A stretch of DNA of 64,000 nt from IMG/VR virus record IMGVR_UViG_3300045988_183636. One strand, written 5' to 3'. Source of the stretch: a virus. Shown piece after piece: positions 24,659 to 46,719 of this stretch. Under the pieces are notes generated by a model. The model saw nothing but the letters and a program-made list of their open reading frames with translations, was not told the origin of the DNA and did not search any database. The translations under genes and the position numbers were made by a program. The stretch's first letter is position 1; each line of letters opens with the position of its first letter.

Positions 24659-25306
24659 ATGTCAAAAACAAAAGGACTATCAAAGAAGAAAAAATTACTA
24701 AAAACGCTCATACATAAATACCTTCCATTGCAGGTACTACTTACTGTCTTTTTGTATGCAGTAATTGTATTTATTAACATTCCAATTAATAAATGGCTTA
24801 CTCTCAACTGTCAGAAATGGTCAAGTGGGGAATATCATTTTTATGATGCATTTTTTATTCTTCCATTTGCTGAACTGTTAATTTTTGCCATTATGTCTGC
24901 CGTTATTTGCGCTGTTTATTATTTTGTCAGTGGAATAATCGCATATAGGAATTACTGTTACATTCCACTTACAGAAGATGAAATCAAGAAAAAAGGATTT
25001 AAAAATGCAGATGAGTATTTTGCTTATGTGTGCAACATGTGTTCTTATGGTTTTAAAAATAATAAAGACTACATTCTTGTTGGTGATGAAGACCTCCAAA
25101 AAATGTTAACTACCTGTCTGCAGGTATTTCCTGATAATGGGACAATTTTTGGAATAAACCGCCATATGGTACGAAATATCATATGGGATCCTGATTTTCT
25201 TTCCGCACTTGCACTAGCCAGTGACCAAAGGGCGGAAATCATCAATGGACGTGTTGTATTGTCTGGCACCACAAAAGATGGTGACAGAAAAGAATATAAG
25301 ATATAA
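24659..25306 (+). CDS. 2-TM membrane protein, array-adjacent paralog family member 1
   Basis: MSKTKG.SKKK..LK...; shares ~45% identity along its full length with the 46072 gene and its N-terminal domain with the 25581 gene. Confidence 0.65.
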   Translation: MSKTKGLSKKKKLLKTLIHKYLPLQVLLTVFLYAVIVFINIPINKWLTLNCQKWSSGEYHFYDAFFILPFAELLIFAIMSAVICAVYYFVSGIIAYRNYCYIPLTEDEIKKKGFKNADEYFAYVCNMCSYGFKNNKDYILVGDEDLQKMLTTCLQVFPDNGTIFGINRHMVRNIIWDPDFLSALALASDQRAEIINGRVVLSGTTKDGDRKEYKI

Positions 25307-25322
25307 AGCAAGGAGATATAAT

Positions 25323-25541
25323 ATGTCAAAGAAAGCATCAGAAACACCGGAGGTGCCATCATATATCCCTCCGGCAAGTGAAAAGGAAAAGATTATAGAA
25401 AAGATCCGAAAAAAAGGAATTGAATGCAAACCGGATGGTACCGGGATTCCAATATTCTACACAAATGACCCGAAAGTAATGGATATGATCCGAAAAGAGA
25501 TCAATGAACGATTTTCGTTCGGGTTTCATATTCGTCCATAG
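25323..25541 (+). CDS. hypothetical small protein
   Basis: RBS AAGGAGAT before ATG 25323. Confidence 0.45.
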   Translation: MSKKASETPEVPSYIPPASEKEKIIEKIRKKGIECKPDGTGIPIFYTNDPKVMDMIRKEINERFSFGFHIRP

Positions 25542-25580
25542 GGAAAATAATAGAAAATAAGATTATAGGAGAAATAGTAC

Positions 25581-25913
25581 ATGTCAAAGAAAAAAATATC
25601 AAAAAAGAAAAATGTATTAAAGGTGTTATGGAATGAGTGTATAACATTCAAGGTGTTAATTTTTATCATAGCATATGTAGTGCTTGCGTTTATTAATATG
25701 CCATTTGAAAAATGGCTCTCACTTTATTTCGAATGGGAAAAATTAAAGGATTATCAAGAAGTATTCATGGAGGAGATAACATTATTAGTAATTCTCCCTC
25801 TCATGGAGATAGCTGCTGTTGCATTAATTTGTTTTATTATCTATGAGTTTTTTTGCTCTGTCAGTAAGATGATTGCATCTGATGAAGTAATTTCGATTGA
25901 AAAGGAAGAATGA
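25581..25913 (+). CDS. membrane protein, N-terminal-domain-only paralog of 24659/46072
   Basis: MSKKKISKKKNVLKVLWNEC.. aligns with the 46072 N-terminus. Confidence 0.55.
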   Translation: MSKKKISKKKNVLKVLWNECITFKVLIFIIAYVVLAFINMPFEKWLSLYFEWEKLKDYQEVFMEEITLLVILPLMEIAAVALICFIIYEFFCSVSKMIASDEVISIEKEE

Positions 25914-25980
25914 TACGAAAAGAACACCGCTATTAGGTCAGAAATAAATAGCAGAGGTTTGCAGATATAAGGAGGATCGG

Positions 25981-26151
25981 AATGTGTACTTTAAAGGATA
26001 AGTTAGTGGAATGTGGAGCATGTGTAGCAGCTGTAATTCTTGTGTTGGCAGTTTGTTATGGACTAAGTTGGATTGTAACATGTGGAGTTATTAAGCTGAT
26101 TACGATGTGTTTTGGATTAACATTTAAGTGGTCCATTGCAACCGGTAAATG
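25981..26151 (+). CDS. possible small membrane protein (56 aa)
   Basis: RBS TAAGGAGGA 6 nt before ATG; two hydrophobic segments; below the ORF-track cutoff. Confidence 0.35.
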
Positions 26152-26408
26152 AGCTATGACAATATTAAATTTTATCATTGAGTGTTGGAAGAATTCTTGC
26201 GACGAAAAAATCAAAAGGAATTATGTTGAATCCCTTGCTAAAGTGGCGGTTTCAGTGGCCATCATTATTATATCTGTTTTATTATATTTGCACATATGAA
26301 ATGTATAACGGAAATGTATATTTTGGGGGAGGAGGGGTAAGTACAAACATAATTTTTAAAAAAGTAGCGCAAAGAAAGAATTCACTAATGCAGAAGGGGC
26401 GTAACAAT

Positions 26409-28231
26409 ATGATCAACGGAGAATTAGTTGTAGATAATTTTGCGGGCGGAGGAGGAGCTTCCACAGGAATTGAACTTGCTACCGGATACAGCGTAGACAT
26501 AGCTATTAACCATGATCCGGAGGCCATTAAGATGCATAAAGTAAATCATCCCAATACAAAACACTATTGTGAAAACGTATGGGAGGTTGATCCAGTAAAA
26601 GCCTGCAAGGGGCACCCTGTCGGTCTTGCATGGTTTTCTCCGGACTGTAAGCATTTTTCCAAGGCCAAGGGGGGAAACCGGTAGAAAAGAATATTCGCGG
26701 TCTTGCGTGGGTTGTGCTTAAATGGGCGGCACTTGTCAGACCAAGAGTTATCATGCTTGAAAATGTGGAAGAATTTCAGACATGGGGACCATGTATTCCT
26801 ATCAGGGATAAAGATACAGGACGCGTTATTGTCAGCATGGTAGGAAGGCATGACAGAGAGAAGAACGAGCCGCGTACGAGGGTTGCAGATCCAGGAGAAG
26901 TTGTTCCTGTGGATCGCCAGATATTCCAACCAGATCCTAAAAGGAGCGGCCAGACATACAAAAAATGGAGAAAGCAGCTAGAAGCACTTGGATATGAGAT
27001 AGATACAAAGGAACTTGTAGCAGCTGATTATGGCGCACCTACTATGAGAAAGAGATTCTTTATGATTGCACGGTGTGATGGCAAGCCGATTGTCTGGCCG
27101 GAACCAACACATGGACCGGCAGATAGTGAAGAGGTAAAGGCAGGACTGTTAAAACCATACGTTGGAGCGTATACGCAATTGGATTTTTCTCTTCCTTGCC
27201 CGAGCATATTTGATACGGCAGAGGAAATCAAAAGGAAATATGGAATACGCGCTGTACGTCCATTGGCGCAGAAAACAATGGATCGAATCGCAAGAGGATT
27301 GAAAAAGTTCGTATTAGACAATCCGGAGCCGTTTATTATCCAATGCAATCATGGTGGAGAGCGTAGACAAAACGACATCAAAGAGCCTTTACCTACTATT
27401 ACTGGAAAACACGGATATGGAATTGTGGAACCTAAGATTGTTCCATATATGGGAACCAATACAACAAATCATCCAGGTGGAAATTGTAAAAATCCTATAC
27501 ATACAATTACAACAGGAAATCAACAGTGCCTTATCAGCCCAACGCTGATTCAGTATCATTCCGAAACATCGAAGGATGAAGTCAGAGGCCAATCGATTGA
27601 AGATCCGATAATGACCGTGGATGGTTCGAACCGATACGGATTGGTCACGTCGTTTCTACATAAATATTATGACGGAGGATACACTGGAGCTGGTGATACT
27701 GTCGAAAATCCGTTACCGACAGTAACATCCTGGGATCATAACAGTCTGTGTGCAGTTAATCTGATCCAAATGAATAATCATTGCGATGGAAGGGACGTGA
27801 AGGAGCCAATTCCAACAATCACAGCAGGCGATGGTCATTTCGGAGAGGTTAGAGCATTTCTGATCAAGTATTATGGTCAGGGAACTGGACAGGATGTTAA
27901 GGAACCTTTGGATACGGTTACATCAAGAGATCGATTTGGTTTAGTTACAATTAATGGTACCGACTATAAGATCGTGGATATCGGATTGAGGATGCTTGAA
28001 CCGAAAGAACTGTATGGATGCCAGGGATTTCCAGATGATTACATCATAGACCGCGATTACACAGGGAAAAAATACCCAAGAAGCGAGCAGGTACGCAGGT
28101 GTGGAAATGCTGTATGTCCTCCGATTCCGGCTGCTCTTGTAAAAGCAAATCTTCCGGAATTATGCGTAGCGAAACGCACTGGGAATATGAAAATTCGTGA
28201 GGAACAGACCGGGCAGCTTAGATTTGCATAA
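26409..28231 (+). pseudogene. multispecific C5-cytosine DNA methyltransferase with tandem target-recognition domains, interrupted by a frameshift at a G6 homopolymer (26670..26675)
   Basis: motif I DNFAGGGGAS and motif IV SPDCKHFS in ORF 26178..26684; RGLAW..RP..IMLENVEEF (motif VI) plus repeated P.PT.T TRD-like modules and motif X GNAV in ORF 26714..28231; the two frames join if the run is G7. Confidence 0.75.
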
Positions 28232-28371
28232 ATTGCATAAATTGCTATACTGTAAAAAGAAAATGTAAATATTGCTATCATTTGTATTTTTATAGACGTT
28301 CATATGCGCAATACATAATTCTTTTTGAAAAAGTAATGAGATGGTAACAAAGAAAAAAGGAGAGTGAAAGA

Positions 28372-28830
28372 GTGGTTCAAAATTTTGAGGCGTATGGAGT
28401 TGAAATTACGGTAGAGAAACCAATTGCTGTATGCGTAGCGTGCTCATTTTGTGTAAACATAGATATGGCGGTGGATAAAAATGTTACTCATTTTTGTGAA
28501 ATTCTTGGGAAAGAAATGACTAATCAAGAAGCTGATAATAAACCTTGTTCAGAATGTCCAATTACATATAGAAATAAAGAGTCTTTAAATGAAAAGAAGG
28601 AGAAAGGAAAAATGTTGATAATAAGTATTGTAATTTTATTTATGGGACTTGTATACATGGGGGCTATTGGAGTTGAAACTTTTTCACGCTCATTAATTTT
28701 TATTATGATTTCCATCGTTGAGCTTTTTCTTATCGTGTATGCGGACCGAAAAGATTTTGAAGAAAAAAGAAAACGTGATCATTCCATAACTCAATATGAT
28801 CCGGATGAAGAAACAATAGAAGAGGATTAA
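28372..28830 (+). CDS. hypothetical membrane protein with a Cys-rich N-terminus
   Basis: 152-aa ORF with RBS AAGGAGAG. Confidence 0.5.
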   Translation: MVQNFEAYGVEITVEKPIAVCVACSFCVNIDMAVDKNVTHFCEILGKEMTNQEADNKPCSECPITYRNKESLNEKKEKGKMLIISIVILFMGLVYMGAIGVETFSRSLIFIMISIVELFLIVYADRKDFEEKRKRDHSITQYDPDEETIEED

Positions 28831-29018
28831 AAAATGGGGGATGAAATTTGCTATTTGCATGCTTCAGAATAGGAAATTAAAAGGATAATGGAGAATAGAA
28901 ATGGGAGTTTTTCAAACAAAAGTATACAAGGAATGTTATCCATTTTCGAGAGAGGTTTTGTACAATACAGAAAAACGGAAATTAATAATTCATTTACTAG
29001 AAAGGTGGTGATATAATT

Positions 29019-29288
29019 ATGCATGAAATAGAAAACAAAATTTTAGAAGAATTGCTTGTTGCACCTTTGTGCATTGTTCAAGACCGGTATGGTGGATGTT
29101 ATTCTGGAGCAGAATATCTGGCATTTAATATGGAACCGTATTTAGTAACAGAATTGGACGTAGATGCAGGTGATATGAGCTGTCGCGATTTTTGGGAATA
29201 CGAAGCGAAAGAGTATATTATTGGAAAAGGAAATACTCCGTTAGAAGCACTATGCGATTTACAAATTAAATTAACTTCAAAGAAGTGA
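29019..29288 (+). CDS. hypothetical small protein
   Basis: RBS AAAGGTGGTG. Confidence 0.45.
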   Translation: MHEIENKILEELLVAPLCIVQDRYGGCYSGAEYLAFNMEPYLVTELDVDAGDMSCRDFWEYEAKEYIIGKGNTPLEALCDLQIKLTSKK

Positions 29289-29482
29289 TTGTGGCAGAAA
29301 GAACGGGTATAAAATGAAAAAGATTCCATGGCTTGTCTTATCTATCAATAACAGCAGAGTACCACTTCCATATGATGCTCCGCATGGGAGTGGTAGTTCA
29401 TAAAAAAGCTTCCATCAATGCTTTTGAAAAGCTATAATTATAACGTGTTATGGTCAAGCTTATAATAAGGAGATGAATAAAT

Positions 29483-29698
29483 ATGTACGGTATATCAAGG
29501 AAAATCCATGAGAGATTCATAAATAGAAAGTCAAAGAAACACGATGAAAAATATACAGTCCCATTTCCTACGGACATTCCAAACCCAAATATCGTGGTTT
29601 TCGGTACTCATGGGAGTGGTAAATGTCGGATGCCTCTTCGCGTTAATGCTCAAATAAAAGAACTGACTACATATGATGGACTGACAGAAAGGAGATAA
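29483..29698 (+). CDS. hypothetical small protein
   Basis: RBS TAAGGAGATG. Confidence 0.45.
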   Translation: MYGISRKIHERFINRKSKKHDEKYTVPFPTDIPNPNIVVFGTHGSGKCRMPLRVNAQIKELTTYDGLTERR

Positions 29699-29700
29699 AT

Positions 29701-30045
29701 ATGGGAACTATTAGAAACAGATTAACGATTGTGAATGATTACAATTTTGATAGAATTACCAACACAAGACAAAATGCGGTTGAATATTTTGGAAAAATCA
29801 TGCGAGATGAATTTGACTTTCCGGATTATGATGTGAACACACAGATGATAAGTCCTATTTTGCCAAGTGTAGTAAACGGCATATACACCTTTGTTATTAT
29901 GGGAGACTGCTCAAAAGACGGATGGGAATTATCTAACGATTTTAAAAAGTACAGAGACGAGTGGATTCGGAAAAATAAGGGTCTAAATATATTGGTTGCA
30001 GACTTTGGAGAGGGAGATGCAGAAGCATATATAAAAGAGTATTAA
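29701..30045 (+). CDS. hypothetical protein
   Basis: start codon abuts the preceding stop; RBS AGGAGAT. Confidence 0.45.
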   Translation: MGTIRNRLTIVNDYNFDRITNTRQNAVEYFGKIMRDEFDFPDYDVNTQMISPILPSVVNGIYTFVIMGDCSKDGWELSNDFKKYRDEWIRKNKGLNILVADFGEGDAEAYIKEY

Positions 30046-30258
30046 TGCCCGTTTACAGTCTATAAAAGACATATTGTATCCAGAATTAAGCAAACAAGCC
30101 GTTTCTTCTCGCCTGTAGAAGGAAGGTTGAACTGGATGAAGATGTGACAGTAGACAACTGGAAGGCTCGTATAGATATTGATGAATTAGAAGCTACATAT
30201 CGGGTCGCAGATTTATATACCGGTTCAATCGAAGCGTGATAGTTAATGTGTAAAGAAA

Positions 30259-30287
30259 GAGTCTTGGAATAAGGCTCTTTTTTTTAT
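30259..30287 (+). terminator. rho-independent terminator
   Basis: agagtcttggaataaggctctttttttt. Confidence 0.6.
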
Positions 30288-30321
30288 TTCAGAAAAATTT
30301 TCAAGAAATTTCTGATTTACT

Positions 30322-30350
30322 TTGACGATTTTTCAAAAGGCGCAATATGT
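30322..30350 (+). promoter_or_regulatory. class-1 promoter
   Basis: ttgacgatttttcaaaaggcgcaatatgt. Confidence 0.6.
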
Positions 30351-30391
30351 GTAATGAAGACGAAAATAAGACGATTTTGGAGGGAGAAAAA

Positions 30392-30721
30392 ATGAAAATT
30401 TACTTTGAGGATGGAAAACTTGTCAATATTAAGCAATTACCGATTGCGCCGGATTATGTGATTGATGCTTCTGATGGAGTAACTGCCTGCATGGATATGC
30501 TGGATCGAATTTACTCGACTAATCGAGATGCAGTTGTATATACAAATTCAATTATTGCATTCAGTAACCGGTATGCATGGAATGAAGAGAAGAAAATTTC
30601 GGATGTTTATATCAGAGATGGAGAGGGTATGGAATTTACCAATATTGCGCTTCTGACAAATAGACAACTTCGGGAGGGGCATAATCTCGCGAAGTTGTAT
30701 CTTGGCGGTGAGTTCCGGTAG
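30392..30721 (+). CDS. hypothetical protein
   Basis: start moved to MKIYFEDG after RBS GGAGGGAG. Confidence 0.5.
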   Translation: MKIYFEDGKLVNIKQLPIAPDYVIDASDGVTACMDMLDRIYSTNRDAVVYTNSIIAFSNRYAWNEEKKISDVYIRDGEGMEFTNIALLTNRQLREGHNLAKLYLGGEFR

Positions 30722-31115
30722 GAAAGAAAGGGAAAAATCATGGACAAAAGTGGAGTAATTAACGGATAGACTTACGAGGAAACAAACCAGACTGCGAAAA
30801 CTGCATGATTGTGGGAAAAAATATGTACAGATAGGATGTCCTACGACAGCTTATGGGATTTGTGTAGGCATACAAAAAGGAAATTGATGAATACTATGCG
30901 GTCGGAGTCCCAGAAGAGCGCCTGGAAAATGCAGAAAAGCAGAGAAAGGAAGAAAAACTTGAGCAAGAATCTAATTTGCATATGAGGGTATAGCAGATTC
31001 AAGATCGGTTGTATGTATTATTTTTGAAAGGGGTGATGCCTATTGAGAGTTAATTTTAAAGAGAGTACATAAATAGCAGTTTAAAAAATCATAAAGAATG
31101 TGAGGGAAAAAATAT

Positions 31116-32900
31116 ATGAGTGGTTTACCATTTGATCCTATTATTATTGCGGTTGTCGCGGTCGTTGTGATCCTTATCGGCATACTTGCCAGCGGGTATG
31201 TCAAAGCGCCGGCAGACAAGGCATACATCATTTCCGGACTTAAGAAAGTTCCGAAGGTGTTAATTGGCCGGGCAGGAATTAAGATTCCTTTTCTGGAAAG
31301 AAAAGACGAACTTCTGTTAAAGCAGATCGGTATTGATATTAAAACCGGAGGCTATGTTCCAACGAAAGATTTCATCGGTGTTGATATTGATGCGATTGCA
31401 AAAATCCGTCTGATTTCCATGCAGGATGTAGGCAAAGAGAAAACCTATACCAGAACAATCGTTGATGAGATTGTTGACGGCAGCAATACAAAAGATGGAG
31501 ATAAAGAATATTCAACTCATACAGAAACTGTTACAATCAAGATTACAGAAGATATGGCGCGTGCGGCAATGCGGAATTTCCTTAATATGAAAGAATCCAA
31601 CATTGTTGAAGCTTTACAGGATTCTTTACAGGGAAATATGAGAGAAATCGTTGGTACGCAGACATTGCGTGCTTTGTGCCAGGATCGTAAATCTTTTGGT
31701 GATGAGGTTCAGAGCAAAGCGCAGCCGGATATGAATGCCCTCGGTGTATGGATCGAGTCCTGCAATATTCAGCGTATTGAGGACGAACAGGATCTGATCA
31801 ATGCTCTTGGTATGGATAACATGGCTGCTATCCAGAAGAGTGCAAGCATTGCAAAGGCAGAGGCTGACAAAGACGTTGCGATTGCACAGGCGAAGGCAGC
31901 AAGAGAAGCAAATGATGCAAAAGTCGCCGCTGATACGGAAATTGCTGAGAAGCAGAACGAGCTTGCAATCAAAAAGGCAGAATTACAGCAGCTCTCTGAC
32001 ACAAAGAAGGCGATTGCGGATGCTGCTTATAAGATTCAGGAACAGGAACAGCGTAAAGCGATTGAGACAGCAAAAGTTAATGCAGATATTGCAGAGCAGG
32101 AAAGAACTGTTGAACTTCGCGAGAAGGAAGCACAGGTTGCAGAACAGACACTTAATGCGACGGTAAAGAAGCAGGCGGATGCAGATAAGTACAGCAGACA
32201 GCAGGCTGCAGAAGCAAATCTGATTGAAAAATCCCGTCAGGCTGATGCAGAAAAATATCAGCAGGAGAAGGAAGCAGAAATCCAAAAGATTAAGGCAGAG
32301 GCCGATAAGGAAGCGAAGAAAAAAGAAGCAGAAGGTATTCTTGCAATCAAGAGATCAGAAGCAGAAGGTATCGCCGCTGTAGGTAAAGCAGAAGCTCAGG
32401 CAATCGAAGCAAAAGGTATTGCAGAAGCTCAAGCAATGGAGAAAAAAGCAGAAGCTTATTCAAAGTATAACAAGGCTGCTGTTGCAGAAATGACGATCAA
32501 AATGCTTCCAGAGCTTGCAGCCAAAGTTGCTGAGCCGCTTGGACAGATTGACAAAATCACAATCATCGGAGGCGGCGATGGCAGCAATGGTATCGAACAG
32601 GTTGCCGGGAATGTTCCTGTTGTTATGGCGAAGGTCTTTGAGAGTGTCAAAGAAGCTACAGGGATAGATCTGACAAGTATTGTTAATGCTGAGTCTTACG
32701 ATGCGAAGGTTAACCGCAATGTTAATTTAACCGGTATCAAAGATACGGTGGCAATTTCCGGCGGATCAAAGAGTGATACTGACGCAGATAAAACCGAGAA
32801 TTCCGGCATCGATTCTGATTTATCAGGAGAAAATGCAGAGGTCATCCGTTCTTTGGCAGAAAATGCTAATCAGGAATCAGCTGACAGTAATCTGGACTAA
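31116..32900 (+). CDS. flotillin-like SPFH/band-7 protein with a long coiled-coil
   Basis: N-terminal TM segment, SPFH core, then ~250 aa of A/E/K/Q-rich heptads. Confidence 0.7.
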   Translation: MSGLPFDPIIIAVVAVVVILIGILASGYVKAPADKAYIISGLKKVPKVLIGRAGIKIPFLERKDELLLKQIGIDIKTGGYVPTKDFIGVDIDAIAKIRLISMQDVGKEKTYTRTIVDEIVDGSNTKDGDKEYSTHTETVTIKITEDMARAAMRNFLNMKESNIVEALQDSLQGNMREIVGTQTLRALCQDRKSFGDEVQSKAQPDMNALGVWIESCNIQRIEDEQDLINALGMDNMAAIQKSASIAKAEADKDVAIAQAKAAREANDAKVAADTEIAEKQNELAIKKAELQQLSDTKKAIADAAYKIQEQEQRKAIETAKVNADIAEQERTVELREKEAQVAEQTLNATVKKQADADKYSRQQAAEANLIEKSRQADAEKYQQEKEAEIQKIKAEADKEAKKKEAEGILAIKRSEAEGIAAVGKAEAQAIEAKGIAEAQAMEKKAEAYSKYNKAAVAEMTIKMLPELAAKVAEPLGQIDKITIIGGGDGSNGIEQVAGNVPVVMAKVFESVKEATGIDLTSIVNAESYDAKVNRNVNLTGIKDTVAISGGSKSDTDADKTENSGIDSDLSGENAEVIRSLAENANQESADSNLD

Positions 32901-38316: not shown

Positions 38317-38585
38317 CACATACGGTCTTCTCAAAATTCAGCCGTCTGCGGCCTGTGGAACTTTCCACTGGACCAAAATAACGATAACCGCCAGAATAAC
38401 AGCAGCGTGCGTTGGCGTGAGAACTATCGGCGCACAGGGATTACTCCTTTCATATTTATCTATCAAACCTTTCCGTACATCGTATGGAAAGGTTATGGGA
38501 CAGCAGGTGCATAGACATGAACTATTCCGGGATCGTTTCCCGGATGTTCCATTTTTAAAACATTAAAACAAATCATAGGAGGGAA

Positions 38586-39314
38586 TTGATGATGGAGAAA
38601 GAAGTAGTATATGTTGCAGAACTGGATTCCGATGTTGATGATGTCGTTGCGGCACATTACTTATTTAACGAGGGTGTGTTAAAGTGTGTAGTATGCGATC
38701 CATATCCAAGAACACCGGAGGGGTTGGCACGAAAGGGAAAGCTGGAAGCGCTTGGCATCGATGTGGTTAAGAAAATGCCACCGGTTGCAAAATATGTGTT
38801 TGTTGGCGGCGCTCTTACGGCTGTTGCTGGCTATATCCGGATGCACCATGTCGACTGGCTGGTAATGAACGGAGGCTTTGTTGGAGCAAATATTGCGACC
38901 TTTGAACTGGATAAGTTCAAGGGGAAGAACACTGTCCGTACCTTCAATTTCAACTGCGATGTTGTGGCTGCAGATACGGTTTTGAAAACTGATGAGAAGC
39001 ATATTTCTCATATTGTTCTTGTCGGAAAAAACGTCTGCCATGACGTCCGAAATACGAAAAATGGTCTCTGGAGTGGCGAGAAATACAAGAAATTGTTCGA
39101 TGAGTACCGGGTTAAGGATGAGAAGCGTCAACACGACTTGCTTGCCTGCCATGAGGGGCTTGCATTTCTGCGGGGAACCAATGCGATCTGTGAGTATGAG
39201 ATGGTAAGACCATACAACACAGGCTTGAATGGCAAGCTGACGCAGTGGGGTAGCACAAAAACCATGGAAACACCATATCGCGAAGTGCTTGCTGCTGTTG
39301 GCTACCAGAATTAA
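38586..39314 (+). CDS. hypothetical protein (possible Rossmann-like fold)
   Basis: RBS TAGGAGGGAATTG; 242 aa; stop abuts CRISPR mini-array 3. Confidence 0.55.
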   Translation: MMMEKEVVYVAELDSDVDDVVAAHYLFNEGVLKCVVCDPYPRTPEGLARKGKLEALGIDVVKKMPPVAKYVFVGGALTAVAGYIRMHHVDWLVMNGGFVGANIATFELDKFKGKNTVRTFNFNCDVVAADTVLKTDEKHISHIVLVGKNVCHDVRNTKNGLWSGEKYKKLFDEYRVKDEKRQHDLLACHEGLAFLRGTNAICEYEMVRPYNTGLNGKLTQWGSTKTMETPYREVLAAVGYQN

Positions 39315-39316
39315 AA

Positions 39317-39420
39317 GCTGCATCATGTGCGGGGGTGTATGGATTGAAATGTCGGAGTATGGGTAAGAATCATATATATTCCTACGTTGTGCTCCTCCCG
39401 GTTGGTGCACGGGTTGAAAT
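39317..39420 (+). CRISPR. CRISPR mini-array 3 (2 divergent repeats, 1 spacer)
   Basis: GCTGCATCATGTGCGGGGGTGTATGGATTGAAAT ... GTTGTGCTCCTCCCGGTTGGTGCACGGGTTGAAAT. Confidence 0.5.
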
Positions 39421-39651
39421 ATAGTTCTAAAAATGGTTGGAAGACCTGTTTTTTGGTTACACCCATTGTCAGCTGTAAACCACAGTTAAGGCTTTCGGAT
39501 GCGGTTAAAGTTTAAAAAGGCAACACCGCCAGATGGCTGTTCCTTTCGCGCCCTGAGATCAAGAAATCATTATGGGGCGGGCACTTACCAAATGAACTTG
39601 AAAGAAAGATCTACGTGGAATCCATGATCCACAGGACAAAGGATAATCCCA

Positions 39652-40008
39652 TTGTCCTTTATGACTTTGATGACAGGTTTTACCAGTGCATGTACATGCT
39701 CCACTATGCGTGAAGATGGCACAGTCGCTGAAAGACGGTTCTTAAAACTCCCGGCAGAATACGACTCTCTGCAACATAAGATCGATCATATCAAACGTGC
39801 ACGGCACCATGGTTCCAGACGTGTTTCAAACCTCTGGGCATATGCAGACGACGTCAATAAAGACATTGTTGTAAAAACAGCCCAGTTTGTTACGGATACT
39901 GCCGTGCTGCATGTTAACAGCATGCAGTTGCGGTGTTATCACTGTGTCCTCAGTCAGCGAGTCCATACGGGAAAACAGGTATGGAAGCACGCGAATTTAG
40001 TCATGTGA
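39652..40008 (+). CDS. hypothetical protein
   Basis: 118-aa ORF without a clear RBS; low-complexity N-terminus. Confidence 0.25.
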   Translation: MSFMTLMTGFTSACTCSTMREDGTVAERRFLKLPAEYDSLQHKIDHIKRARHHGSRRVSNLWAYADDVNKDIVVKTAQFVTDTAVLHVNSMQLRCYHCVLSQRVHTGKQVWKHANLVM

Positions 40009-40118
40009 GACTTCACGGCCGGCCGCCGAAAGGACGTACACTACAAAAGCCTTTTGCACCTGACTTTTCTGTGGTATACTGAAAATATAAAAGATATTTC
40101 AAGGAGAAGGCAGAGAAA

Positions 40119-40991
40119 ATGAGAAAAAGTGTGAAAGATTTTGGAAATTTTGTAAGAAAAGACAATTACCCGGAGCTTCCAGAAGAATTGAAAGAATTTA
40201 ACTATTTTTTGAGTGATGGCGAGACGGGACATGTGATCATGGCTGTGCCTGAGCACACTTTGAATAAAGCAGAAGAAAATGTGGATGAACTGGATGATTA
40301 CGAATGTCCAGTTCCAGTGGCATATGTTCTTAAGAATGGCTATCGGCTGTATAAGAACCATGTAATATGCCAGGTTCCGTACGATGAGAAACTGGGGGTG
40401 CGTATTCCGGAAGAATATTACGAACCGTCGATTATTTCTACAGATGCCGGGGAAGCAGAGAATCCGGTGTCCGGAGAGTTCCCTTATGAGAAAAGGAAAT
40501 GCTATCCAGAATTTGCAAACCATGCAGAAGCTGTAGTTGCGGATATCGTTAAGGATTACGTGCAGATCCGCGTATTTTTTAAAAATCCTACAGAAAACGA
40601 GATTGCACAGTTTTCTCCGGATGCCAGACTGAAAATTCGTTTTACGGAGATGGATGGAACCTGTCTGTTTACCGTTAAAGCTGGTGATTTGTCATGGATG
40701 GATGCACCATACCATGCAAAACTTGCAAAAGATTTGTCTGGATTCGACTTTACAGGTGAAAGTGAGATTCCGTTATATCTCCTCCTGATCGACTCATCGA
40801 ATGGTGAGGTCAAAGCGGTTCGAAATGTCCAGTTGTCAGAAGAGTTTTCCAGCAAATTGAGAAATCTGGTGGATCGTCAGGTCAACTCTGATTTTGATAA
40901 AAAGAAATATGCGGATATATTGTCCAACATTTATCTCCTTTTTTCATCGGATGAGCTGGCGGATGCCAGCACCATTAAGTGTCAGTGGTAG
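40119..40991 (+). CDS. hypothetical protein
   Basis: RBS CAAGGAGAAGG; 290 aa; stop abuts CRISPR mini-array 4. Confidence 0.55.
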   Translation: MRKSVKDFGNFVRKDNYPELPEELKEFNYFLSDGETGHVIMAVPEHTLNKAEENVDELDDYECPVPVAYVLKNGYRLYKNHVICQVPYDEKLGVRIPEEYYEPSIISTDAGEAENPVSGEFPYEKRKCYPEFANHAEAVVADIVKDYVQIRVFFKNPTENEIAQFSPDARLKIRFTEMDGTCLFTVKAGDLSWMDAPYHAKLAKDLSGFDFTGESEIPLYLLLIDSSNGEVKAVRNVQLSEEFSSKLRNLVDRQVNSDFDKKKYADILSNIYLLFSSDELADASTIKCQW

Positions 40992-41011
40992 GTAAGAAGA
41001 TATACTTTACT

Positions 41012-41230
41012 GTTGCGCCCCATTGGGTGCATGGGTTGAAATCTTTATGACCTTCTGAAAAGTGAGGGCATCTTAGTTGCACCCCCGCAAGGGATGTATG
41101 GGTTGAAATTCAATAGAAACAGATGCATTCGAAGGCGTTACAAGTTGCACCCCGCGAGGGGTGTATGGGTTGAAATTGCAGAAAGCTCAGGATTGGAAGG
41201 TTGCATCCTATGGGATGCATGGATTGAAAC
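41012..41230 (+). CRISPR. CRISPR mini-array 4 (4 divergent repeats, 3 spacers; spacer 2 is almost identical to array-1 spacer 2)
   Basis: GTTGCGCCCCATTGGGTGCATGGGTTGAAAT / GTTGCACCCCCGCAAGGGATGTATGGGTTGAAAT / GTTGCACCCCGCGAGGGGTGTATGGGTTGAAAT / GTTGCATCCTATGGGATGCATGGATTGAAAC. Confidence 0.65.
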
Positions 41231-41261
41231 GAACATATTTGTTATTATTTATTATTGAGAT

Positions 41262-41304
41262 CAGAAAGGTCTGCAGTCAGTTAATCTGGCTGCAGATTTT
41301 TTTT
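41262..41304 (+). terminator. rho-independent terminator
   Basis: tctgcagtcagttaatctggctgcagatttttttt. Confidence 0.6.
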
Positions 41305-41333
41305 GCAATTTTTTAAAAATTTTCCAAAATCTT

Positions 41334-41365
41334 TTGACGATTTTTTAAAAGGCGCAATATACATA
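41334..41365 (+). promoter_or_regulatory. class-1 promoter driving an ORF-less transcript
   Basis: ttgacgattttttaaaaggcgcaatatacata. Confidence 0.55.
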
Positions 41366-41369
41366 TTGA

Positions 41370-41570
41370 AGGGATAAACAGGGGCTTACCGTTTGTTTCT
41401 TCAATAAGAGTTTTTCTCTTATATGCCTCCTTAAGTTTCCTGCGCTGCATTTACAGCATTTTGGCAGCGCAGGGGGAATCCACAGGACTGCATTTGACGT
41501 TGTGTGGCGGCCTGCTCATCCGGTTCAACCCCGGAGGATTCCCTTACCGCTTATTTTTGCGGAGACAAAA
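41370..41570 (+). ncRNA. putative small non-coding RNA with a tRNA-like module (7-bp acceptor-like stem GGAATCC/GGATTCC, T-arm TCCGG-TTCAACC-CCGGA) and a terminal hairpin
   Basis: promoter to terminator-like hairpin with no ORF; the T-arm region ctgctcatccggttcaaccccggaggattccc is homologous to ctgttcatccggttcgagttcggaggattcc in the leader at 10925. Confidence 0.4.
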
Positions 41571-41595
41571 ATTTTAAAAAATATTCAAAAATTCT

Positions 41596-41626
41596 TTGAC
41601 GATTTTTTAAAAGGCGCAATATGTGT
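41596..41626 (+). promoter_or_regulatory. class-1 promoter of the cas operon
   Basis: ttgacgattttttaaaaggcgcaatatgtgt; its first ~40 transcribed nt duplicate those downstream of the 41334 promoter. Confidence 0.6.
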
Positions 41627-41668
41627 ATTGAAGGAATAAACAGGGGCTTGCCGCTGTTGATTACCAGA

Positions 41669-41700
41669 GTTAAAAGTTGTGCCCCTATGGGGTGCATGGG
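41669..41700 (+). promoter_or_regulatory. degenerate CRISPR-repeat-like sequence in the cas5 5' UTR
   Basis: GTTGTGCCCCTATGGGGTGCATGGGTAATAAG has the repeat hairpin but a mutated 3' handle; sits 16 nt before cas5. Confidence 0.5.
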
Positions 41701-41715
41701 TAATAAGAGAAAGGA

Positions 41716-42390
41716 ATGGAAAAAGAAAAAATGGGAGTGAAACTAAAAGTCTGGGGAGATTACGCATTGTTCACCAGACCAGAACTGAAAACTGAACGGT
41801 ATACATACGATGTGATGACACCGTCGGCGGCTAGAGGAATTCTGGAATCTATCTACTGGCATCCGGGACTTCGGTGGTATGTAGACAAGATTCATGTATT
41901 AAATCCGATTGCCACTACGAGCGTGAGAAGAAATGAACTTCTCAGTAAGATACCAAAGTCAAATATGCTGCAGGCATACAACGGCGGGGATGTGAAACTG
42001 TATAACTCGTCAAGAGACGATATTATCCAGAGGGCATCTGTTATTCTCCGGGATGTCTGCTATGTGATTGAGGCGCATTTTGAAATGACAGGGAAAGCGA
42101 GCCCAACAGACAGCCCGGCAAAGTTTATAAGTATCTTTAACAACAGGGCAAGAAAAGGGGCATGTTATTCGATGCCGTATTTTGGTGTAAGGGAATTCCC
42201 GGCACACTTTGAACTCTGCGAAGGAGATGAAAAGATCCCATCCTACTATGAAGGACTTCCGGATAAAGATCTCGGGCTGATGCTTTATGATCTGGATTAC
42301 TCCTGCGGTAGAGATATCCAGCCAATGTATTATCATGCGATTATGAAAAACGGCGTTATTGACGTTGGGAACAGTGAGGTGCTTCGATGA
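41716..42390 (+). CDS. cas5: Cas5c (Cas5d) of type I-C CRISPR-Cas
   Basis: KLKVWGDYALFTRPELKTERYTYDVMTPSAARGILESIYWHP matches the Cas5d N-terminal signature; start may be the second ATG at 41731. Confidence 0.8.
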   Translation: MEKEKMGVKLKVWGDYALFTRPELKTERYTYDVMTPSAARGILESIYWHPGLRWYVDKIHVLNPIATTSVRRNELLSKIPKSNMLQAYNGGDVKLYNSSRDDIIQRASVILRDVCYVIEAHFEMTGKASPTDSPAKFISIFNNRARKGACYSMPYFGVREFPAHFELCEGDEKIPSYYEGLPDKDLGLMLYDLDYSCGRDIQPMYYHAIMKNGVIDVGNSEVLR

Positions 42391-44126
42391 TCCTTCAGTC
42401 ACTTGTGAAATTATATGAAACACTTGCGGATCAGGGAAAAGTGTCCCGTCCTGGCTGGTGTAATGCAAAGGTATCCTATGCGGTGGTTTTAAACCATGAT
42501 GGGACGATTAAAGATATTGTTTCCGTGAAACAGAAAGTGAAGAGAGGAAAGAAGACTGTTGAAATTCCAATAATTATGCAGGTTCCAGAGATGGTCACCC
42601 GCGCTAACAACATTGCCTCCAGCTTTCTCTGCGAAAATGCAAAGTATCTCTTTGGGATTGACGAAAAGATGAGTTTGCGTACACTGGAATGTTTTAAGGC
42701 GGCAAAGAAAAAACATCTTGATATTCTTGATGTTGTGGATTCACCTGTAGCACAGACGGTATGTAACTTTTTCCGTTCATGGGATCCGGAACAGGCGTTG
42801 GATCAACCGGCTGTTGCAAAACTTGCAGAAGAGTTTTATAAAGGCGGAAACCTCGTTTTTGAAGTAGATGGGGAATATGTGCATGATAATGAAGAAGTCC
42901 GCAGGGCATGGATGGATTACAGCAGTGTACCATATGAAATGGTAACTGGAAGATGCCTTATTACTGGAGAGGAAGCGGAGATTGCCCGCACGCACGGGAA
43001 AATCAAAGGAGTTCCGGGAGCACAGTCATCTGGCGCGTCGCTTGTATCATTTAACGGAGCATCCCTTGAGTCTTATGAAAAAACACAGAGCTACAACGCG
43101 CCGATTAGCACCTATGCGGCGTATGCATATGTGACCGCGCTGAATTACTTGCTTTCTACGGACGGGTATCACAGCAAGGTAGGAGGTTCCATGGTGGTTT
43201 TCTGGACAGATTCCGGGGATGTGGATGATGTGAGCAGACTGCGGAAGATGATGGGAAGCATCAATGAAAAGGATCACACCCCTACAGATACGGATGAAAA
43301 ACTGTACGTCCTCTGCCTTGCACCAAATGCCGGGCGAATTGCAGTCCGGTTCTTCTATGAGGATGCGATCGGGGTAATCTGGGAAAACCTGTCCGAACAT
43401 GCCAGTCGGATGAAGATTGTAAAACCAGTATTTGAGGATCAAGAATTTATCAATATCTGGCAGATGCTCATGGAGACAGTCAACCAGAATCTTACAGATA
43501 AAACACCTGTCCCGCATATGTCAGCAATGACGTTACAGTCAGTCATTTCGGATACACCGTATCCGCAGAGTCTGTATGCAGGTGTGTTATCTCGTATCCG
43601 CGCGGAGCACAAAGGTGTTACTTACAGAAAAGCATCGATTATTAAAGCTTTTTTAATAAAGAACTACAAATGGGAGGAAGGAAAAAATATGGAAGCATTA
43701 AATGAAGGCTGTAAGGATCGGGCATATATCCTTGGAAGACTGTTTGCGGTTATGGAAAAGGCACAGAAAGAAGCAGTTGGCAATATCAACCAGACAATTT
43801 GTGATAAGTTTTACAATTCCGCGTGCACAACACCAAGATCGATCTTTCCAGTACTGATCAGGCTATCTAACAGTCATTTAAGTAAGTTGAAACGGACAAA
43901 ACCGGGGAGAGGATATTATTTTACAGCTAAAATGCAGGATTTAATGGATAAAATTCCGGTAACAGATGATGATCCGGGATTCCCGCGGCGTTTCTCATAT
44001 GAGGATCAGGGTAAGTTTGCACTTGGTTATTATCATCAGATGCGGGCGGAATATACAAGCAGTAAGTTAAAAGATAATGATTCAGAAGGTGATCAGACAA
44101 ATGCAGAGAATATGGAGGAAAACTAA
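42387..44126 (+). CDS. cas8c: Cas8c (Csd1) large subunit, type I-C
   Basis: MILQSLVKLYETLADQGKV... N-terminus; 579 aa; 4-nt overlap with cas5; position between cas5 and cas7. Confidence 0.75.
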   Translation: MILQSLVKLYETLADQGKVSRPGWCNAKVSYAVVLNHDGTIKDIVSVKQKVKRGKKTVEIPIIMQVPEMVTRANNIASSFLCENAKYLFGIDEKMSLRTLECFKAAKKKHLDILDVVDSPVAQTVCNFFRSWDPEQALDQPAVAKLAEEFYKGGNLVFEVDGEYVHDNEEVRRAWMDYSSVPYEMVTGRCLITGEEAEIARTHGKIKGVPGAQSSGASLVSFNGASLESYEKTQSYNAPISTYAAYAYVTALNYLLSTDGYHSKVGGSMVVFWTDSGDVDDVSRLRKMMGSINEKDHTPTDTDEKLYVLCLAPNAGRIAVRFFYEDAIGVIWENLSEHASRMKIVKPVFEDQEFINIWQMLMETVNQNLTDKTPVPHMSAMTLQSVISDTPYPQSLYAGVLSRIRAEHKGVTYRKASIIKAFLIKNYKWEEGKNMEALNEGCKDRAYILGRLFAVMEKAQKEAVGNINQTICDKFYNSACTTPRSIFPVLIRLSNSHLSKLKRTKPGRGYYFTAKMQDLMDKIPVTDDDPGFPRRFSYEDQGKFALGYYHQMRAEYTSSKLKDNDSEGDQTNAENMEEN

Positions 44127-45039
44127 GATGAGCACACCAATTAAGAACAGATATGATTTCGTAGTATTATTCGACGTAGAGAATGGAAATCCGAACGGTG
44201 ATCCGGATGCCGGAAATATGCCGAGAGTTGATCCAGAGACTGGCATCGGGCTTGTGACAGATGCCTGCATAAAGCGCAAGATCCGTAATTATGTGGAAAC
44301 TGTAAAAGAAGATGCAGCCGGGTTCAAGATCTATATTAAAGAGGGGGTCCCGCTGAACCGGAGTGACCTTAAGGCAGTCGAAAGTCTTGGTATTGACGTC
44401 GGTGACGACAAAAATGCACTTGAAGATGTAAAGAAGCTGAAAAAGACAGATGAAGATGTGGATCTTAAGCTCCGTGACTATATGTGTAGTAATTTCTATG
44501 ATATCCGTACATTTGGTGCTGTCTTGACTACCTTTACAAAGGCGGCATTAAACTGTGGGCAGGTACGTGGCCCGGTACAGATTGGTTTTGCAAAAAGTAT
44601 TGATCCTGTTTTCAGCCAGGATATTACTGTAACCAGAGTTGCAATCACAACGGAAAAGGATGCGGAAAAGAAAAATACAGAAATGGGAAGAAAGAGTATT
44701 ATTCCTTATGGACTTTACCGTGTGGAGGGATATATTTCTGCTAATCTTGCCCGTAAGACCACCGGCTTTTCTGAAGACGATCTGGAACTGCTTTGGGAAG
44801 CAATCATTAACATGTTTGAGAATGACCATTCCGCAGCACGCGGGAAGATGGCAGTGCGTGAGCTCATCGTATTCAAGCATAACAGCGAGCTTGGCAATTG
44901 TCCATCGTACAAACTGTTTGAAACTGTTGATGTTAAGAAGAATGATGGTGTTGAGTTTCCTCGTAAATATTCCGATTATGCAGTGACTATTCATGAGGAT
45001 GCGATTCCGGATGGCGTGACAATGACTCGCAAAATCTAA
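44127..45039 (+). CDS. cas7: Cas7c (Csd2) backbone subunit, type I-C
   Basis: RYDFVVLFDVENGNPNGDPDAGNMPR signature; RBS GGAGGAAAAC before ATG 44127 (the ORF-track start at 44077 is inside cas8). Confidence 0.8.
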
Positions 45040-45289
45040 AAAGATTTCCAGAGATTACAAGGCAACCCGCGTTTTGCGGGCTGCATCTGCTTGGGTTATG
45101 CCGAAATGTAGAATTCCGGTGCGAACTGAAAGCTTACATAGCTTCTCTGGGAGACTCGCACCGGAAATGGAGGTATTAGTGTACAAAAAGAACACAAAAC
45201 CCAACTGTATAAGGCCGTTTGAGAACAATTAATTAGAGGAATTGTTTATATTTTGGCGATCGGGAGAGTTGTTTCTGTTCACTTTTACA

Positions 45290-46001
45290 GCTACGCCCCA
45301 TGGAGGGGCGTATGGATTGAAAATACCGCAACAATTAAAGGCAATGAAAATCTTGTACGCTACGCCCCATGGAGGGGCGTATGGATTGAAAATGATTGTT
45401 ATTGTTTTTTATTCATGGAGAGGAAAGCTACGCCCCATGGAGGGGCGTATGGATTGAAAAGTAAGGTTTCGTCTCGAAGCCTTTATTCTGTTTTGCTGCG
45501 CCCCATGGAGGGGCGTATGGATTGAAATACCAAAATCTTTTGACATTCTTATAAATGGTAACAGCTACGTCTTATGGGGTACGTATGGATTGAAATCATA
45601 ATAATTGTAGAGATCTCAATACAAAATAAAGCTGCGTCTCATGGAATACGTATGGATTGAAATGAAAAGGCGAGTTTGCGAAAGCAGATATTGGAATGTT
45701 GCGTCTCGTGGAGTACGTATGGATTGAAATTCCAACTTTAACTACATAACTATCCTGATAAACTTGCTGCACCCCATGGAGAGTGTATGGATTGAAATTT
45801 AAAAAATCATGGATAACATCTGCGATAAGACGTTGCACCTCGCTAGGGGTGTATGGGTTGAAATTTCCATAATCGGTAGCCAATTATTATCATTAGGTGT
45901 TGCACCCCATAGAGGGTGTATGGATTGAAATTATATAAAAATGATGAATATGTAAAAAAAATAAAAGAGTTACGCTCCATGGAGTGCGTATGGCTTGAAA
46001 C
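45290..46001 (+). CRISPR. main type I-C CRISPR array (11 repeats, 10 spacers), leader-proximal repeats conserved and distal repeats degenerate
   Basis: consensus GCTACGCCCCATGGAGGGGCGTATGGATTGAAAAT; spacers 33-36 nt; the last repeat GTTACGCTCCATGGAGTGCGTATGGCTTGAAAC lies 70 nt before the 46072 CDS. Confidence 0.85.
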
Positions 46002-46071
46002 CTCTTATTTTTTTAAAGATATCACAATTACGCCCAAAGTGGGCTTACGTAAATTTAAAGGAGAAAAGTAC

Positions 46072-46719
46072 ATGTCAAAAACAAAAGGAATATCAAAAAA
46101 GAAAGATATATTAAAGGTATTTTGGAATGAGTGTGCAGTATTTAAGGTAGTTGTTTGTATTCTTGCGTATGTGATACTCGGCTTTATCAATATACCAATT
46201 AACAGGTGGCTTACATTTCATGTACCTAAATGGTCAGATGGGAAACTACATGATATAACAGGATCATTTTTTGTTCTTCCTATCCTTGAAGTATTAGCGG
46301 TCACTTTAATTTATCTTATCGCTAATGGATGCTTTTATTTCATCAGCAAGATGATCGCGTACAGGAATTACTGTTACATTCCGCTTACGGAAGATGAAAT
46401 TAAAGGAAAGAAATTTAAGAATGCAAATGAGTATTTTTCCTATGTCCTCAATGTCCTTTCCTATGGTTTTAAGAATGAAAAAGAAAATCTCCAGGTTAGT
46501 GATGATGATCTTCGAGAAATGCTTATAACTTGTCTGATTGTATTCCCTGATAATGGGACAATATTTCAGATAAAACCAGAAACTGCGTGGAATGTTTCAG
46601 ACGACATCCTTTTCTCCGAAGCCGTTGAATTGAATTGCGGAAAAGCAGAAATAATTGATAAGCATGTTGTATTGTCTGGTGATAATAGAAACGGCAAAAG
46701 AGAAGAATATACAGTGTGA
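46072..46719 (+). CDS. 2-TM membrane protein, array-adjacent paralog family member 2
   Basis: MSKTKGISKKKDILKVFWNEC...; paralog of 24659..25306; RBS AAAGGAGAAAAG. Confidence 0.65.
   Translation: MSKTKGISKKKDILKVFWNECAVFKVVVCILAYVILGFINIPINRWLTFHVPKWSDGKLHDITGSFFVLPILEVLAVTLIYLIANGCFYFISKMIAYRNYCYIPLTEDEIKGKKFKNANEYFSYVLNVLSYGFKNEKENLQVSDDDLREMLITCLIVFPDNGTIFQIKPETAWNVSDDILFSEAVELNCGKAEIIDKHVVLSGDNRNGKREEYTV

Follow-up and report, generated by a model that had tools for sequence, protein, structure and literature searches.

The type I-C variant of CRISPR-Cas found in huge phages has neither Cas1 nor Cas2, and a helicase replaces Cas3 (Al-Shayeb et al. 2020, PMC7162821); viral mini-arrays have also been reviewed (PMC11656645), and a membrane protein downstream of the arrays is described in neither of these publications. 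The window, that is, the whole 64,000-nucleotide stretch of viral DNA analysed here, resembles this variant in carrying Cas5c-Cas8c-Cas7 without an adjacent Cas3, in its compact arrays, in a separate SF2 helicase beside a mini-array and in belonging to a large element with a tRNA cluster; it differs in that the helicase lies 17.6 kb from the Cascade and outlives deletion of the island in which the Cascade resides. The Cas5c, Cas8c/Csd1 and Cas7/Csd2 proteins all score above the cut-off against TIGR01876, TIGR01863 and TIGR02589, and their genes occur together with type I-C-type repeats, the combination that defines type I-C. No Cas3 adjoins the Cascade, and the large ORFs of the window yield nothing closer than a RadD/ResIII-like helicase that lacks an HD domain. 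This helicase has a weak 'alt. Cas3' match in PADLOC, is conserved 5' of array 1 and paralog A in relatives and is 99-100% identical in L032, L039 and L088. The coordinates of all these features are collected in Table 1.

Table 1. Position of the genes, arrays and other elements in the window
Feature	Position	Strand	Remarks
SF2 helicase	21788..24091	+	767 aa; ResIII/Helicase_C, RadD-like (Pfam, PHROG, NCBIfam)
Promoter-like element TTGACG-N11-GGCGCAATAT	24161..24187	+	Sole one of its class upstream of array 1 and paralog A
Array 1	24264..24499	+	4 degenerate type I-C-like repeats, 3 spacers
Paralog A	24659..25306	+	215-aa 2-TM membrane protein
72-aa gene	25323..25541	+	3' of A here and in L032/L039; 5' of the C-type copy in L019/L021
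Variable island	25543..46770	.	21.2 kb; blastn collinearity breaks at 25542 and 46771
Paralog C'	25581..25913	+	110 aa, truncated: N-tail, TM1, loop and TM2 only
Array 3	41010..41230	+	Mini-array, 4 repeats; terminator-like hairpin 3' of the array
cas5c	41716-42390	+	Pfam; NCBIfam above cut-off
cas8c/csd1	42387-44126	+	Pfam; NCBIfam above cut-off
cas7/csd2	44077-45039	+	Pfam; NCBIfam above cut-off
Array 2	45289..46001 (45289..46062 with possible 12th repeat)	+	11 repeats
Paralog B	46072..46719	+	215-aa 2-TM membrane protein; last gene of the island
176-aa gene	46765-47295 (ORF-list start TTG 46723)	+	3' of B
154-aa ASCH-domain gene	47324-47788	+	3' of the 176-aa gene

Genes for two-transmembrane (2-TM) proteins lie just past two different arrays at this locus, as the preliminary description had pointed out, A being separated from array 1 by 159 nt and B from array 2 by 70 nt. 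That a three-copy family among about 100 ORFs should follow two of the window's three arrays has a chance probability, by rough estimate, of the order of 10^-3; the adjacency is non-random within this genome, yet it represents only two evolutionary events. The analysis points, with a probability of about 0.65, to genome architecture and reshuffling, and not to a CRISPR function, as the explanation for this post-array position.

Paralogs A and B share 51% identity in a full-length alignment (110/216, E 8e-76), slightly above the 45% or so initially claimed, and the third, N-terminal-only copy reported at 25581 is recovered as C', which matches the N-terminal ~95 residues alone, diverges directly past TM2 and has full-length orthologs in L013, L019 and L021; no further copy was found in the window by tblastn. 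The two N-terminal helices and the cytoplasmic domain likewise agree with both predictions obtained here, since Kyte-Doolittle hydropathy predicts a K/R-rich N-tail and then two TM segments, at about 20-45 and 60-96, and in the AF2 model an alpha/beta domain comes after helices at 22-49 and 62-100; when modelled alone, the soluble domain is worse (pLDDT 60). Family proteins are 215 to 371 aa long; their cytoplasmic domain, of roughly 115 aa or more, is globular and conserved, and they have a conserved cytoplasmic juxtamembrane motif, AxRNYCYIPLTE[DE]E...YF.Y, unique to the A/B/C' family. The family is narrow, with 109 representatives among 1.84 billion. Neither A, B and C' in Pfam, PHROGs, PADLOC and NCBIfam nor 46 family members in Pfam gave a consistent match, and a PDB sequence-profile search (0 matches) and a fold search with the 2-TM protein were equally negative. 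INPHARED phages and PLSDB plasmids contain no match to the locus (megablast) or to B (tblastn), and in IMG/VR neither the 2-TM family nor Cas8c nor two spacers gave a match. A, B and C' constitute a small orphan family whose proteins have two TM helices, an N-in/C-in topology and a cytoplasmic domain of ~115 residues.

Class II holins are proteins of about 60-150 aa with two TMDs and a short charged C-terminus. The two helices and the N-in/C-in topology of the 2-TM proteins recall them, and a neighbouring 146-aa ORF (48311) has a sub-threshold match to Phage_holin_T (E 0.004). It is nevertheless extremely improbable that the 2-TM proteins are holin-like members of a phage lysis cassette, given that their length and globular cytoplasmic domain place them far above class II holin size, that up to three copies occur per genome, that no PHROG matches them, that endolysin-type domains are absent among the scanned neighbours (72-aa, 176-aa, ASCH, acetyltransferase and others), and that the genes are promoter-proximal or at element edges, not in a late lysis cassette.

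The association with arrays was followed through about 90 homologous loci, clustered at 85% identity and counted where 600 nt or more of upstream sequence was present. An array precedes the gene in 10 of 11 A-type and 6 of 6 B-type loci, and in none of the C-type (0/15), distant (0/28) or singleton (0/7) loci. Repeat-like matches 2-6 kb upstream of C-type copies proved to be coding-sequence false positives, and the ORFs that follow the 2-TM gene in L050 and L016, considered as possible family members, are unrelated to it. In 26 of the 28 distant loci, the 2-TM gene has the promoter-like element found at 24161 in the window directly upstream, about 90 nt away and with no array between; other copies lie 3' of TnpB, 3' of an ECF sigma factor and a small TM gene, or near an integrase, and the distant-lineage gene adjoins chromosomal purH/dnaJ, a typical accessory position at an element edge. 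The distant members P0096, P0105 and P0130 are on short contigs with uninformative neighbours. Downstream, the 176-aa and ASCH genes are the commonest context among close relatives (14/28 and 18/28 loci, respectively), and the 176-aa gene follows in none of 16 distant loci; this pair was rejected as a conserved partner, because roughly half of the close relatives and every distant one lack it. As no neighbour on either side is universally conserved, guilt by association provides no evidence for function. Type I-C repeats are present somewhere in all related elements, so that co-occurrence at the level of the whole element is inseparable from shared ancestry.

These counts bear on the functional link to the Cas3-less Cascade that had been proposed initially, according to which the 2-TM protein would serve the type I-C Cascade at the membrane, as an effector or helper that target binding recruits or activates. 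By analogy, the locus resembles those of type VI-B Csx28 and of the type III TM-CARF/Cam1-like effectors, where a membrane protein is encoded beside CRISPR components; two of the three arrays lead directly into a family member with no terminator between, and an alternative output would make sense for a Cascade without adjacent Cas3. Unlike those effectors, however, the 2-TM family lacks linkage across lineages, a sensor or HEPN domain and a PADLOC or Pfam match; searches of Pfam, PADLOC and NCBIfam found no CARF, SAVED, HEPN or other signalling or nuclease domain in it, nor was any defence- or CRISPR-associated domain detected. Arrays and cas genes are missing from the surroundings of the gene in most family lineages, L039-type relatives carry A without any Cascade in the region, recombinants between A and B keep a 2-TM gene after losing the Cascade, the purH/dnaJ-adjacent homolog lies next to chromosomal housekeeping genes, and duplication of the genes did not include the arrays. 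Below 100% identity, the nearest relatives of Cas8c are at about 50% and belong to chromosomal Roseburia type I-C systems, and the junction of Cascade, array 2 and B therefore represents a single lineage. An effector or helper role is thus very unlikely, and the proposed link, with array adjacency missing from every homolog group other than A and B, does not survive the comparison; the 2-TM family is not a new CRISPR component.

The repeats of the arrays end in ATTGAAA[T/A/C] and have a conserved hairpin; in array 2, the hairpin is maintained through compensatory changes, for which reason the repeats are probably still processed. The number of repeats at the leader end of array 2 differs among strains (11-13), and a possible, very degenerate 12th repeat at 46028-46062 abuts the RBS of B. 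The spacers of array 1 are conserved in L029-L043, and positions 24329-24430 in array 1 are 90% identical to 41074-41175 in array 3, one spacer being common to both. Protospacers for all 16 spacers were sought by blastn-short in the fetched loci and in the window, where nothing other than the arrays was matched.

As regards transcription, the promoter-like element TTGACG-N11-GGCGCAATAT occurs in 10 copies on the + strand, against 0.07 expected, and further promoter-like elements lie at 21547 (the helicase's own) and at 41334 and 41596 (cas genes). A strong terminator-like hairpin (41263-41303) is found 3' of array 3. Between array 1 and A, and between array 2 and B, there is neither a terminator-like site nor a promoter of the element's conserved class, and the RNAs of both array-gene junctions are unstructured (z 0.76 and -0.86). 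Because of this lack of terminators and conserved-class promoters, transcription probably reads through the arrays into A and B, coming from the 24161 promoter and array 1 in the case of A and from the cas operon and array 2 in that of B, which keeps plausible the read-through suggested in the preliminary description. For A, the suggestion is weakened by a possible extended -10-like motif, TGgTATACA, about 55 nt upstream of its ATG in the 159-nt gap, from which it may have a promoter of its own that would make read-through dispensable.

A deliberate arrangement would go further, with A and B as 3' cistrons of the pre-crRNA and Cas5c cleavage at the terminal repeat setting the 5' end of their mRNA, thereby tying 2-TM levels to array transcription and Cascade abundance. 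The probable processing of the repeats, the array-gene junctions devoid of terminators and element-class promoters, and the contact of B's RBS with the possible 12th repeat, whose hairpin is retained, are compatible with such coupling. It is nonetheless unlikely, judging from the sequence, as the arrangement arose only twice and within one element family, other lineages use the promoter element directly or other contexts, and the gap between array 1 and A holds the possible independent -10 motif. The transcriptional coupling between arrays and 2-TM genes is regarded as incidental.

The architectural explanation draws on the island between the two paralogs, which contains C', C5 methylases, an SPFH/flotillin-like gene, a 13-tRNA cluster, array 3, the Cascade, array 2 and B. 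L039, L032 and L034 are collinear with 24236-25542 of the window and then pass straight to 46771, the island being absent. In the chimeras P0005 (L088, L089) and P0004 (L090), the N-terminal part of the 2-TM protein comes from A and the C-terminal part from B, and the gene order is helicase, array 1, chimera, 176-aa gene and ASCH gene, with the island removed. The crossover points of P0005 and P0004 differ, giving two independent chimeras across three samples; all crossovers fall within a single conserved stretch, roughly 120 nt long, and every product is an intact chimeric gene. These chimeras show that the island is deleted through recombination between the paralogs. As in the repeat-flanked islands of phage mosaicism, A and B form direct repeats around 21 kb and precise island-less recombinants are observed, although the repeats here, unlike the usual ones, are diverged functional paralogous genes (51% amino acid identity).

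A module duplication, the other origin initially considered, is contradicted by the limits of the homology, since A and B are similar in DNA only from 24650 and 46063, that is, 9 nt before the ATG, which leaves the arrays outside and indicates that they were not duplicated with the genes; moreover, array 1 is related to array 3 and not to array 2. The duplicated unit is the gene alone, its copies marking the edges of an insertion/deletion island. According to the architectural explanation, the 2-TM genes occupy the borders of variable modules, and CRISPR modules would have been placed directly upstream of two pre-existing copies, the first comprising mini-array 1 and its promoter and the second the 21-kb island ending in the Cascade and array 2; A and B now flank the island as direct repeats, and homologous recombination in their best-conserved stretch deletes it and leaves an A/B chimera. 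The confinement of array adjacency to the A and B lineages, together with the variable contexts elsewhere, argues for this explanation. A selective reason for the placement, such as a benefit from array-driven transcription, is possible, since finding two of three arrays in this position is unlikely by chance.

As to what the 2-TM proteins do, superinfection-exclusion proteins offer a parallel: T4 Imm, P22 SieA and lactococcal Sie2009 are moron or accessory membrane proteins of phages and prophages. Like them, A and B are small, anchored in the inner membrane and devoid of enzymatic motifs, and their genes are variable, promoter-proximal or at element edges, diversified into paralogs and placed beside conflict genes (methylases, mini-arrays). 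The family shows the two TM segments, the variable or element-edge location and the own or proximal promoter to be expected of a moron-type membrane protein; in contrast, it has no sequence or fold similarity to any superinfection-exclusion protein and has its own juxtamembrane motif. On this analogy, a 'moron'-like accessory role in competition between elements or in modification of the host envelope, superinfection exclusion for instance, may be put forward tentatively.

A combined mechanism, in which Cas5c cleavage at the terminal degenerate repeat would release or stabilise the A and B mRNAs as 3' pre-crRNA cistrons while the paralogs serve as homology arms switching the 21-kb island, is quite improbable; if true, production of the membrane protein would report CRISPR expression, and the population would toggle the CRISPR/tRNA/methylase island on and off.

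In summary, a tempting but unsupported candidate for an alternative effector of Cas3-less type I systems is removed, and an orphan family of membrane proteins, narrow in extent (motif NYCYIPLTE[DE]E), is defined from elements of gut Lachnospiraceae, being multicopy and recombination-prone in large mobile elements, of at least 212 kb, from human-gut members of this group; the host is probably Roseburia or another of the Lachnospiraceae. The natural recombinants document the gain and loss of a whole Cascade-array-tRNA island through recombination between diverged paralogs, which bears on the movement of CRISPR cargo among huge phages or plasmids.

The full-length paralogy of A and B, the two 2TM membrane-protein genes, is borne out by an end-to-end alignment with 51% identity (E 8e-76). 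The two proposed transmembrane (TM) helices are supported by hydropathy, which places two TM segments behind a K/R-rich N-tail and thus predicts an N-in/C-in topology, and by an AlphaFold model from 31 homologs with helices at residues 22–49 and 62–100 and then a small alpha/beta domain (pLDDT 73 overall, 80–92 at residues ~100–160 and 73–86 in the remaining soluble part). The third copy, C', is indeed N-terminal only, its alignment being confined to the N-tail and the two TM helices with their loop and diverging directly past '...SKMIA'; tblastn finds no further 2TM copies in the window. The position of A and B directly downstream of two real arrays is likewise confirmed, and the Cas5c, Cas8c and Cas7 genes lie ahead of array 2.

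Features of the element, with positions in the window
Feature	Position	Strand	Remarks
A	24659–25306		215 aa; in ORF list
C'	25581–25913		110 aa; in ORF list
B	46072 (ATG)–46719		start chosen as biologically sensible; GGAG ribosome-binding site ahead
Array 1	24264–24499		four degenerate repeats; gap to A 159 nt
Array 2	45289–46001		eleven repeats; gap to B 70 nt
Array 3	41010–41230		four repeats; upstream of cas5c
Promoter-like elements	10719, 12134, 21547, 24161, 30322, 33109, 37235, 38135, 41334, 41596	+	
CCA-adding enzyme	3114–4496		
RadD/ResIII-like SF2 helicase	21788–24091		767 aa; own promoter-like element; directly upstream of array 1
SPFH/Band-7 plus flotillin-domain protein	31116–32900		594 aa; inside island
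tRNA cluster	34509–36014	-	13 genes; inside island
Additional tRNA	52912–52984	+	downstream
NAD-dependent ligase			in window
BspA-type LRR protein			in window
LPD1 polyvalent-protein domain			in window
PcfJ-like protein			in window
Methylases			in window

By sequence comparison, A and B are direct repeats that flank the CRISPR/tRNA/methylase island and between which it is lost. In three close relatives (L039, L032 and L034), collinearity with the window extends to 25542, where a 72-aa gene ends, and resumes at 46771, where a 176-aa gene begins, so that the 21.2-kb stretch with C' at one end and B at the other constitutes an indel; either one or two full-length C/B-like copies occur in L021 and L019 at the island position. 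Two homologs, P0004 and P0005, are chimeras, identical to A in the N-terminal part and to B in the C-terminal part, on contigs with the order helicase, array 1, chimera, 176-aa gene and ASCH, and both junction arms are correctly placed by blastn. The crossover falls after ...CNMCSYGFKN in P0005 and after ...EYFAYV in P0004, which indicates independent events, and the chimeras are seen in three samples; since their halves are near-identical to the parents, whereas A and B are so divergent, they represent recent deletions and not ancestors. The alternative put forward in the preliminary description, duplication of array and gene as one module, does not hold, as the A/B DNA similarity begins 9 nt ahead of the ATG, at 24650/46063, ends at 25158/46574 and leaves the arrays outside, and array 1 instead resembles part of array 3. 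In particular, arrays 1 and 3 share their second spacer (31/33), and a 102-nt stretch around it (24329–24430 in array 1) is 90% identical between them; the two are thus mutual copies.

Array adjacency, defined as type I-C-type repeats with array-like spacing within 1 kb upstream, was scored in 80 metagenome loci plus others, with homologs grouped at 85% identity and lineages counted only at loci with at least 600 nt upstream. It is found in 10 of 11 A-type and 6 of 6 B-type loci, and in none of the 15 C-type loci (full-length orthologs of C'), the 28 of the distant lineage (~30% identity) or the seven singletons (L031, L046, L047, L050, L051, L082 and L085); the array link is thus not conserved among homologs. 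The B-type instances form one strain-level lineage, given a Cascade without intermediate relatives, and array adjacency therefore arose twice, within one element family. Elsewhere, reading of the sequences confirms the contexts: methylase genes precede the L013 copy, genes for an ECF-type sigma factor and a small membrane protein the copy in L050 (a related element), and unrelated sequence the L051 copy, and a TnpB gene (OrfB_IS605/Cas12f-like TNB) ends 3 nt before the homolog P0049 on a 604-kb contig (L082 8352–10720). The region upstream of 2TM genes may be a preferred insertion site. The window has a TnpB of its own (8732–9994). Homologs of the distant lineage, on Lachnospiraceae chromosomal contigs, have the same promoter-like element as the window ~90 nt upstream with no array between, and chromosomal purH, dnaJ and ogt-like genes come after the gene, which therefore lies at the border of an integrated element. 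The distant 371-aa homolog (L074 7870–9083; L001), with these neighbors in a Lachnospiraceae MAG, has an extra C-terminal domain of ~150 aa and two-repeat type I-C mini-arrays 2.4–3.5 kb upstream, which suggests chromosomal integration by related elements.

The family itself comprises 91 clusters in a word-indexed search, none with a name or Pfam domain, and only 109 matches at E<0.001 when all 1.84 billion representatives are searched exhaustively with a profile; family libraries, a PDB sequence profile search and a fold search give no match. The conserved core consists of an xSKKK N-tail, the two TM helices with conserved Pro and Glu in TM2, the cytoplasmic juxtamembrane motif A-x-[RK]-N-Y-C-Y-I-P-L-T-E-[DE]-E...F-x-N-A-x-E-Y-F-x-Y, and a further 'DL.KML..C..VF.(D/N)NGTIF' stretch, the juxtamembrane segment being the best conserved (79% identity between A and B, vs 35% for the TM helices). 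A role as CRISPR effector, or as accessory of the Cas3-less Cascade, as the position of A and B had suggested, is in conflict with the comparative data and with the absence of a relevant domain, and is very improbable; a holin is scarcely credible in view of protein size, the number of copies and the lack of a lysin among the neighbors scanned. The array adjacency is better explained, with a probability of about 0.65, by an architectural account in which an orphan accessory membrane-protein family would be positioned at module boundaries, CRISPR modules would have inserted directly upstream of two 2TM copies, these copies would now mediate island loss, and array–gene co-transcription would probably be incidental.

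The promoter-like element TTGACG-N11-RGCGCAATAT occurs in 10 copies, all on the + strand, vs 0.07 expected. Near A, the sole promoter of this conserved class is that at 24161, upstream of array 1, and none lies between cas7, array 2 and B; no terminator-like site separates array 1 from A or array 2 from B, whereas a strong terminator-like site lies just downstream of array 3 (41263–41303, 18-bp stem). With no intervening terminator or conserved-class promoter, A and B are likely transcribed by read-through from the arrays, although an extended -10-like TGgTATACA ~55 nt upstream of A could allow independent transcription. The suggested control by read-through is thus likely as regards transcription, but the coupling is probably incidental; an adaptive coupling of arrays and 2TM genes, through read-through or processing, is unlikely. 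The array–gene junction RNAs have no unusual structure. A possible twelfth repeat, very degenerate with the hairpin intact, lies directly against the ribosome-binding site of B, so that Cas5c-dependent processing of the B mRNA is conceivable, though speculative.

Upstream of the cas operon, ~230 nt at 41365–41600, between the promoter-like elements at 41334 and 41596, fold at -80.8 kcal/mol (z = -5.3; 0/200 shuffles equally stable) with no Rfam match and are a candidate for a structured non-coding RNA. In the cas5c 5' UTR, between the 41596 element and the ribosome-binding site, lies a single hairpin resembling a repeat, GTTGTGCCCCTATGGGGTGCATGGGTAATAAG (41676–41707); it could serve as a site of Cas5c processing or as an autoregulatory/decoy single repeat, comparable to the single repeat units/Racr treated in PMC11656645. 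The repeats of the three arrays are unusually heterogeneous, and the hairpin is kept through compensatory changes (A-U vs G-C in 10 vs 7 sequences; elsewhere C-G vs U-A), which suggests selection for processing alongside lowered repeat–repeat identity; the leader-end repeat count differs among strains (11–13). Spacer 4 of array 2 (45529–45562, ACCAAAATCTTTTGACATTCTTATAAATGGTAAC) is similar to the promoter class of the element itself, with 24/34 matches to the promoters at 38135 and 41334, including CCAAAA(T/A)CTTTTGAC. It has no exact protospacer in IMG/VR and probably originates from the promoter of a related element, an origin that would fit promoter silencing by a nuclease-less Cascade.

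The relatives all derive from human-gut metagenomes, on contigs of up to 212 kb, and from one Lachnospiraceae MAG; INPHARED, PLSDB and IMG/VR hold no similar sequences, and the Cas8c relatives closest in sequence (~50% identity) are type I-C proteins encoded on Roseburia chromosomes. A published precedent for the CRISPR context is the type I-C variant of huge phages, without Cas1/2 and with a helicase instead of Cas3 (PMC7162821), which the window helicase recalls. This helicase has weak PADLOC matches to 'possible alternative Cas3' (E 7e-7) and no domain match in its C-terminal ~400 residues, and is kept in variants without Cascade. The SPFH/flotillin-like protein is another membrane-associated cargo gene.

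In summary, the family has not been described before, and the phenomenon is ordinary mobile-element mosaicism, with accessory membrane genes and cargo islands flanked by paralogs. By analogy with variable, promoter-proximal or edge-located phage membrane proteins, a role of the 2TM protein in inter-element exclusion or envelope modification may be proposed with low confidence; the most useful products of the analysis are the A×B recombinants documented in nature, together with the side observations.
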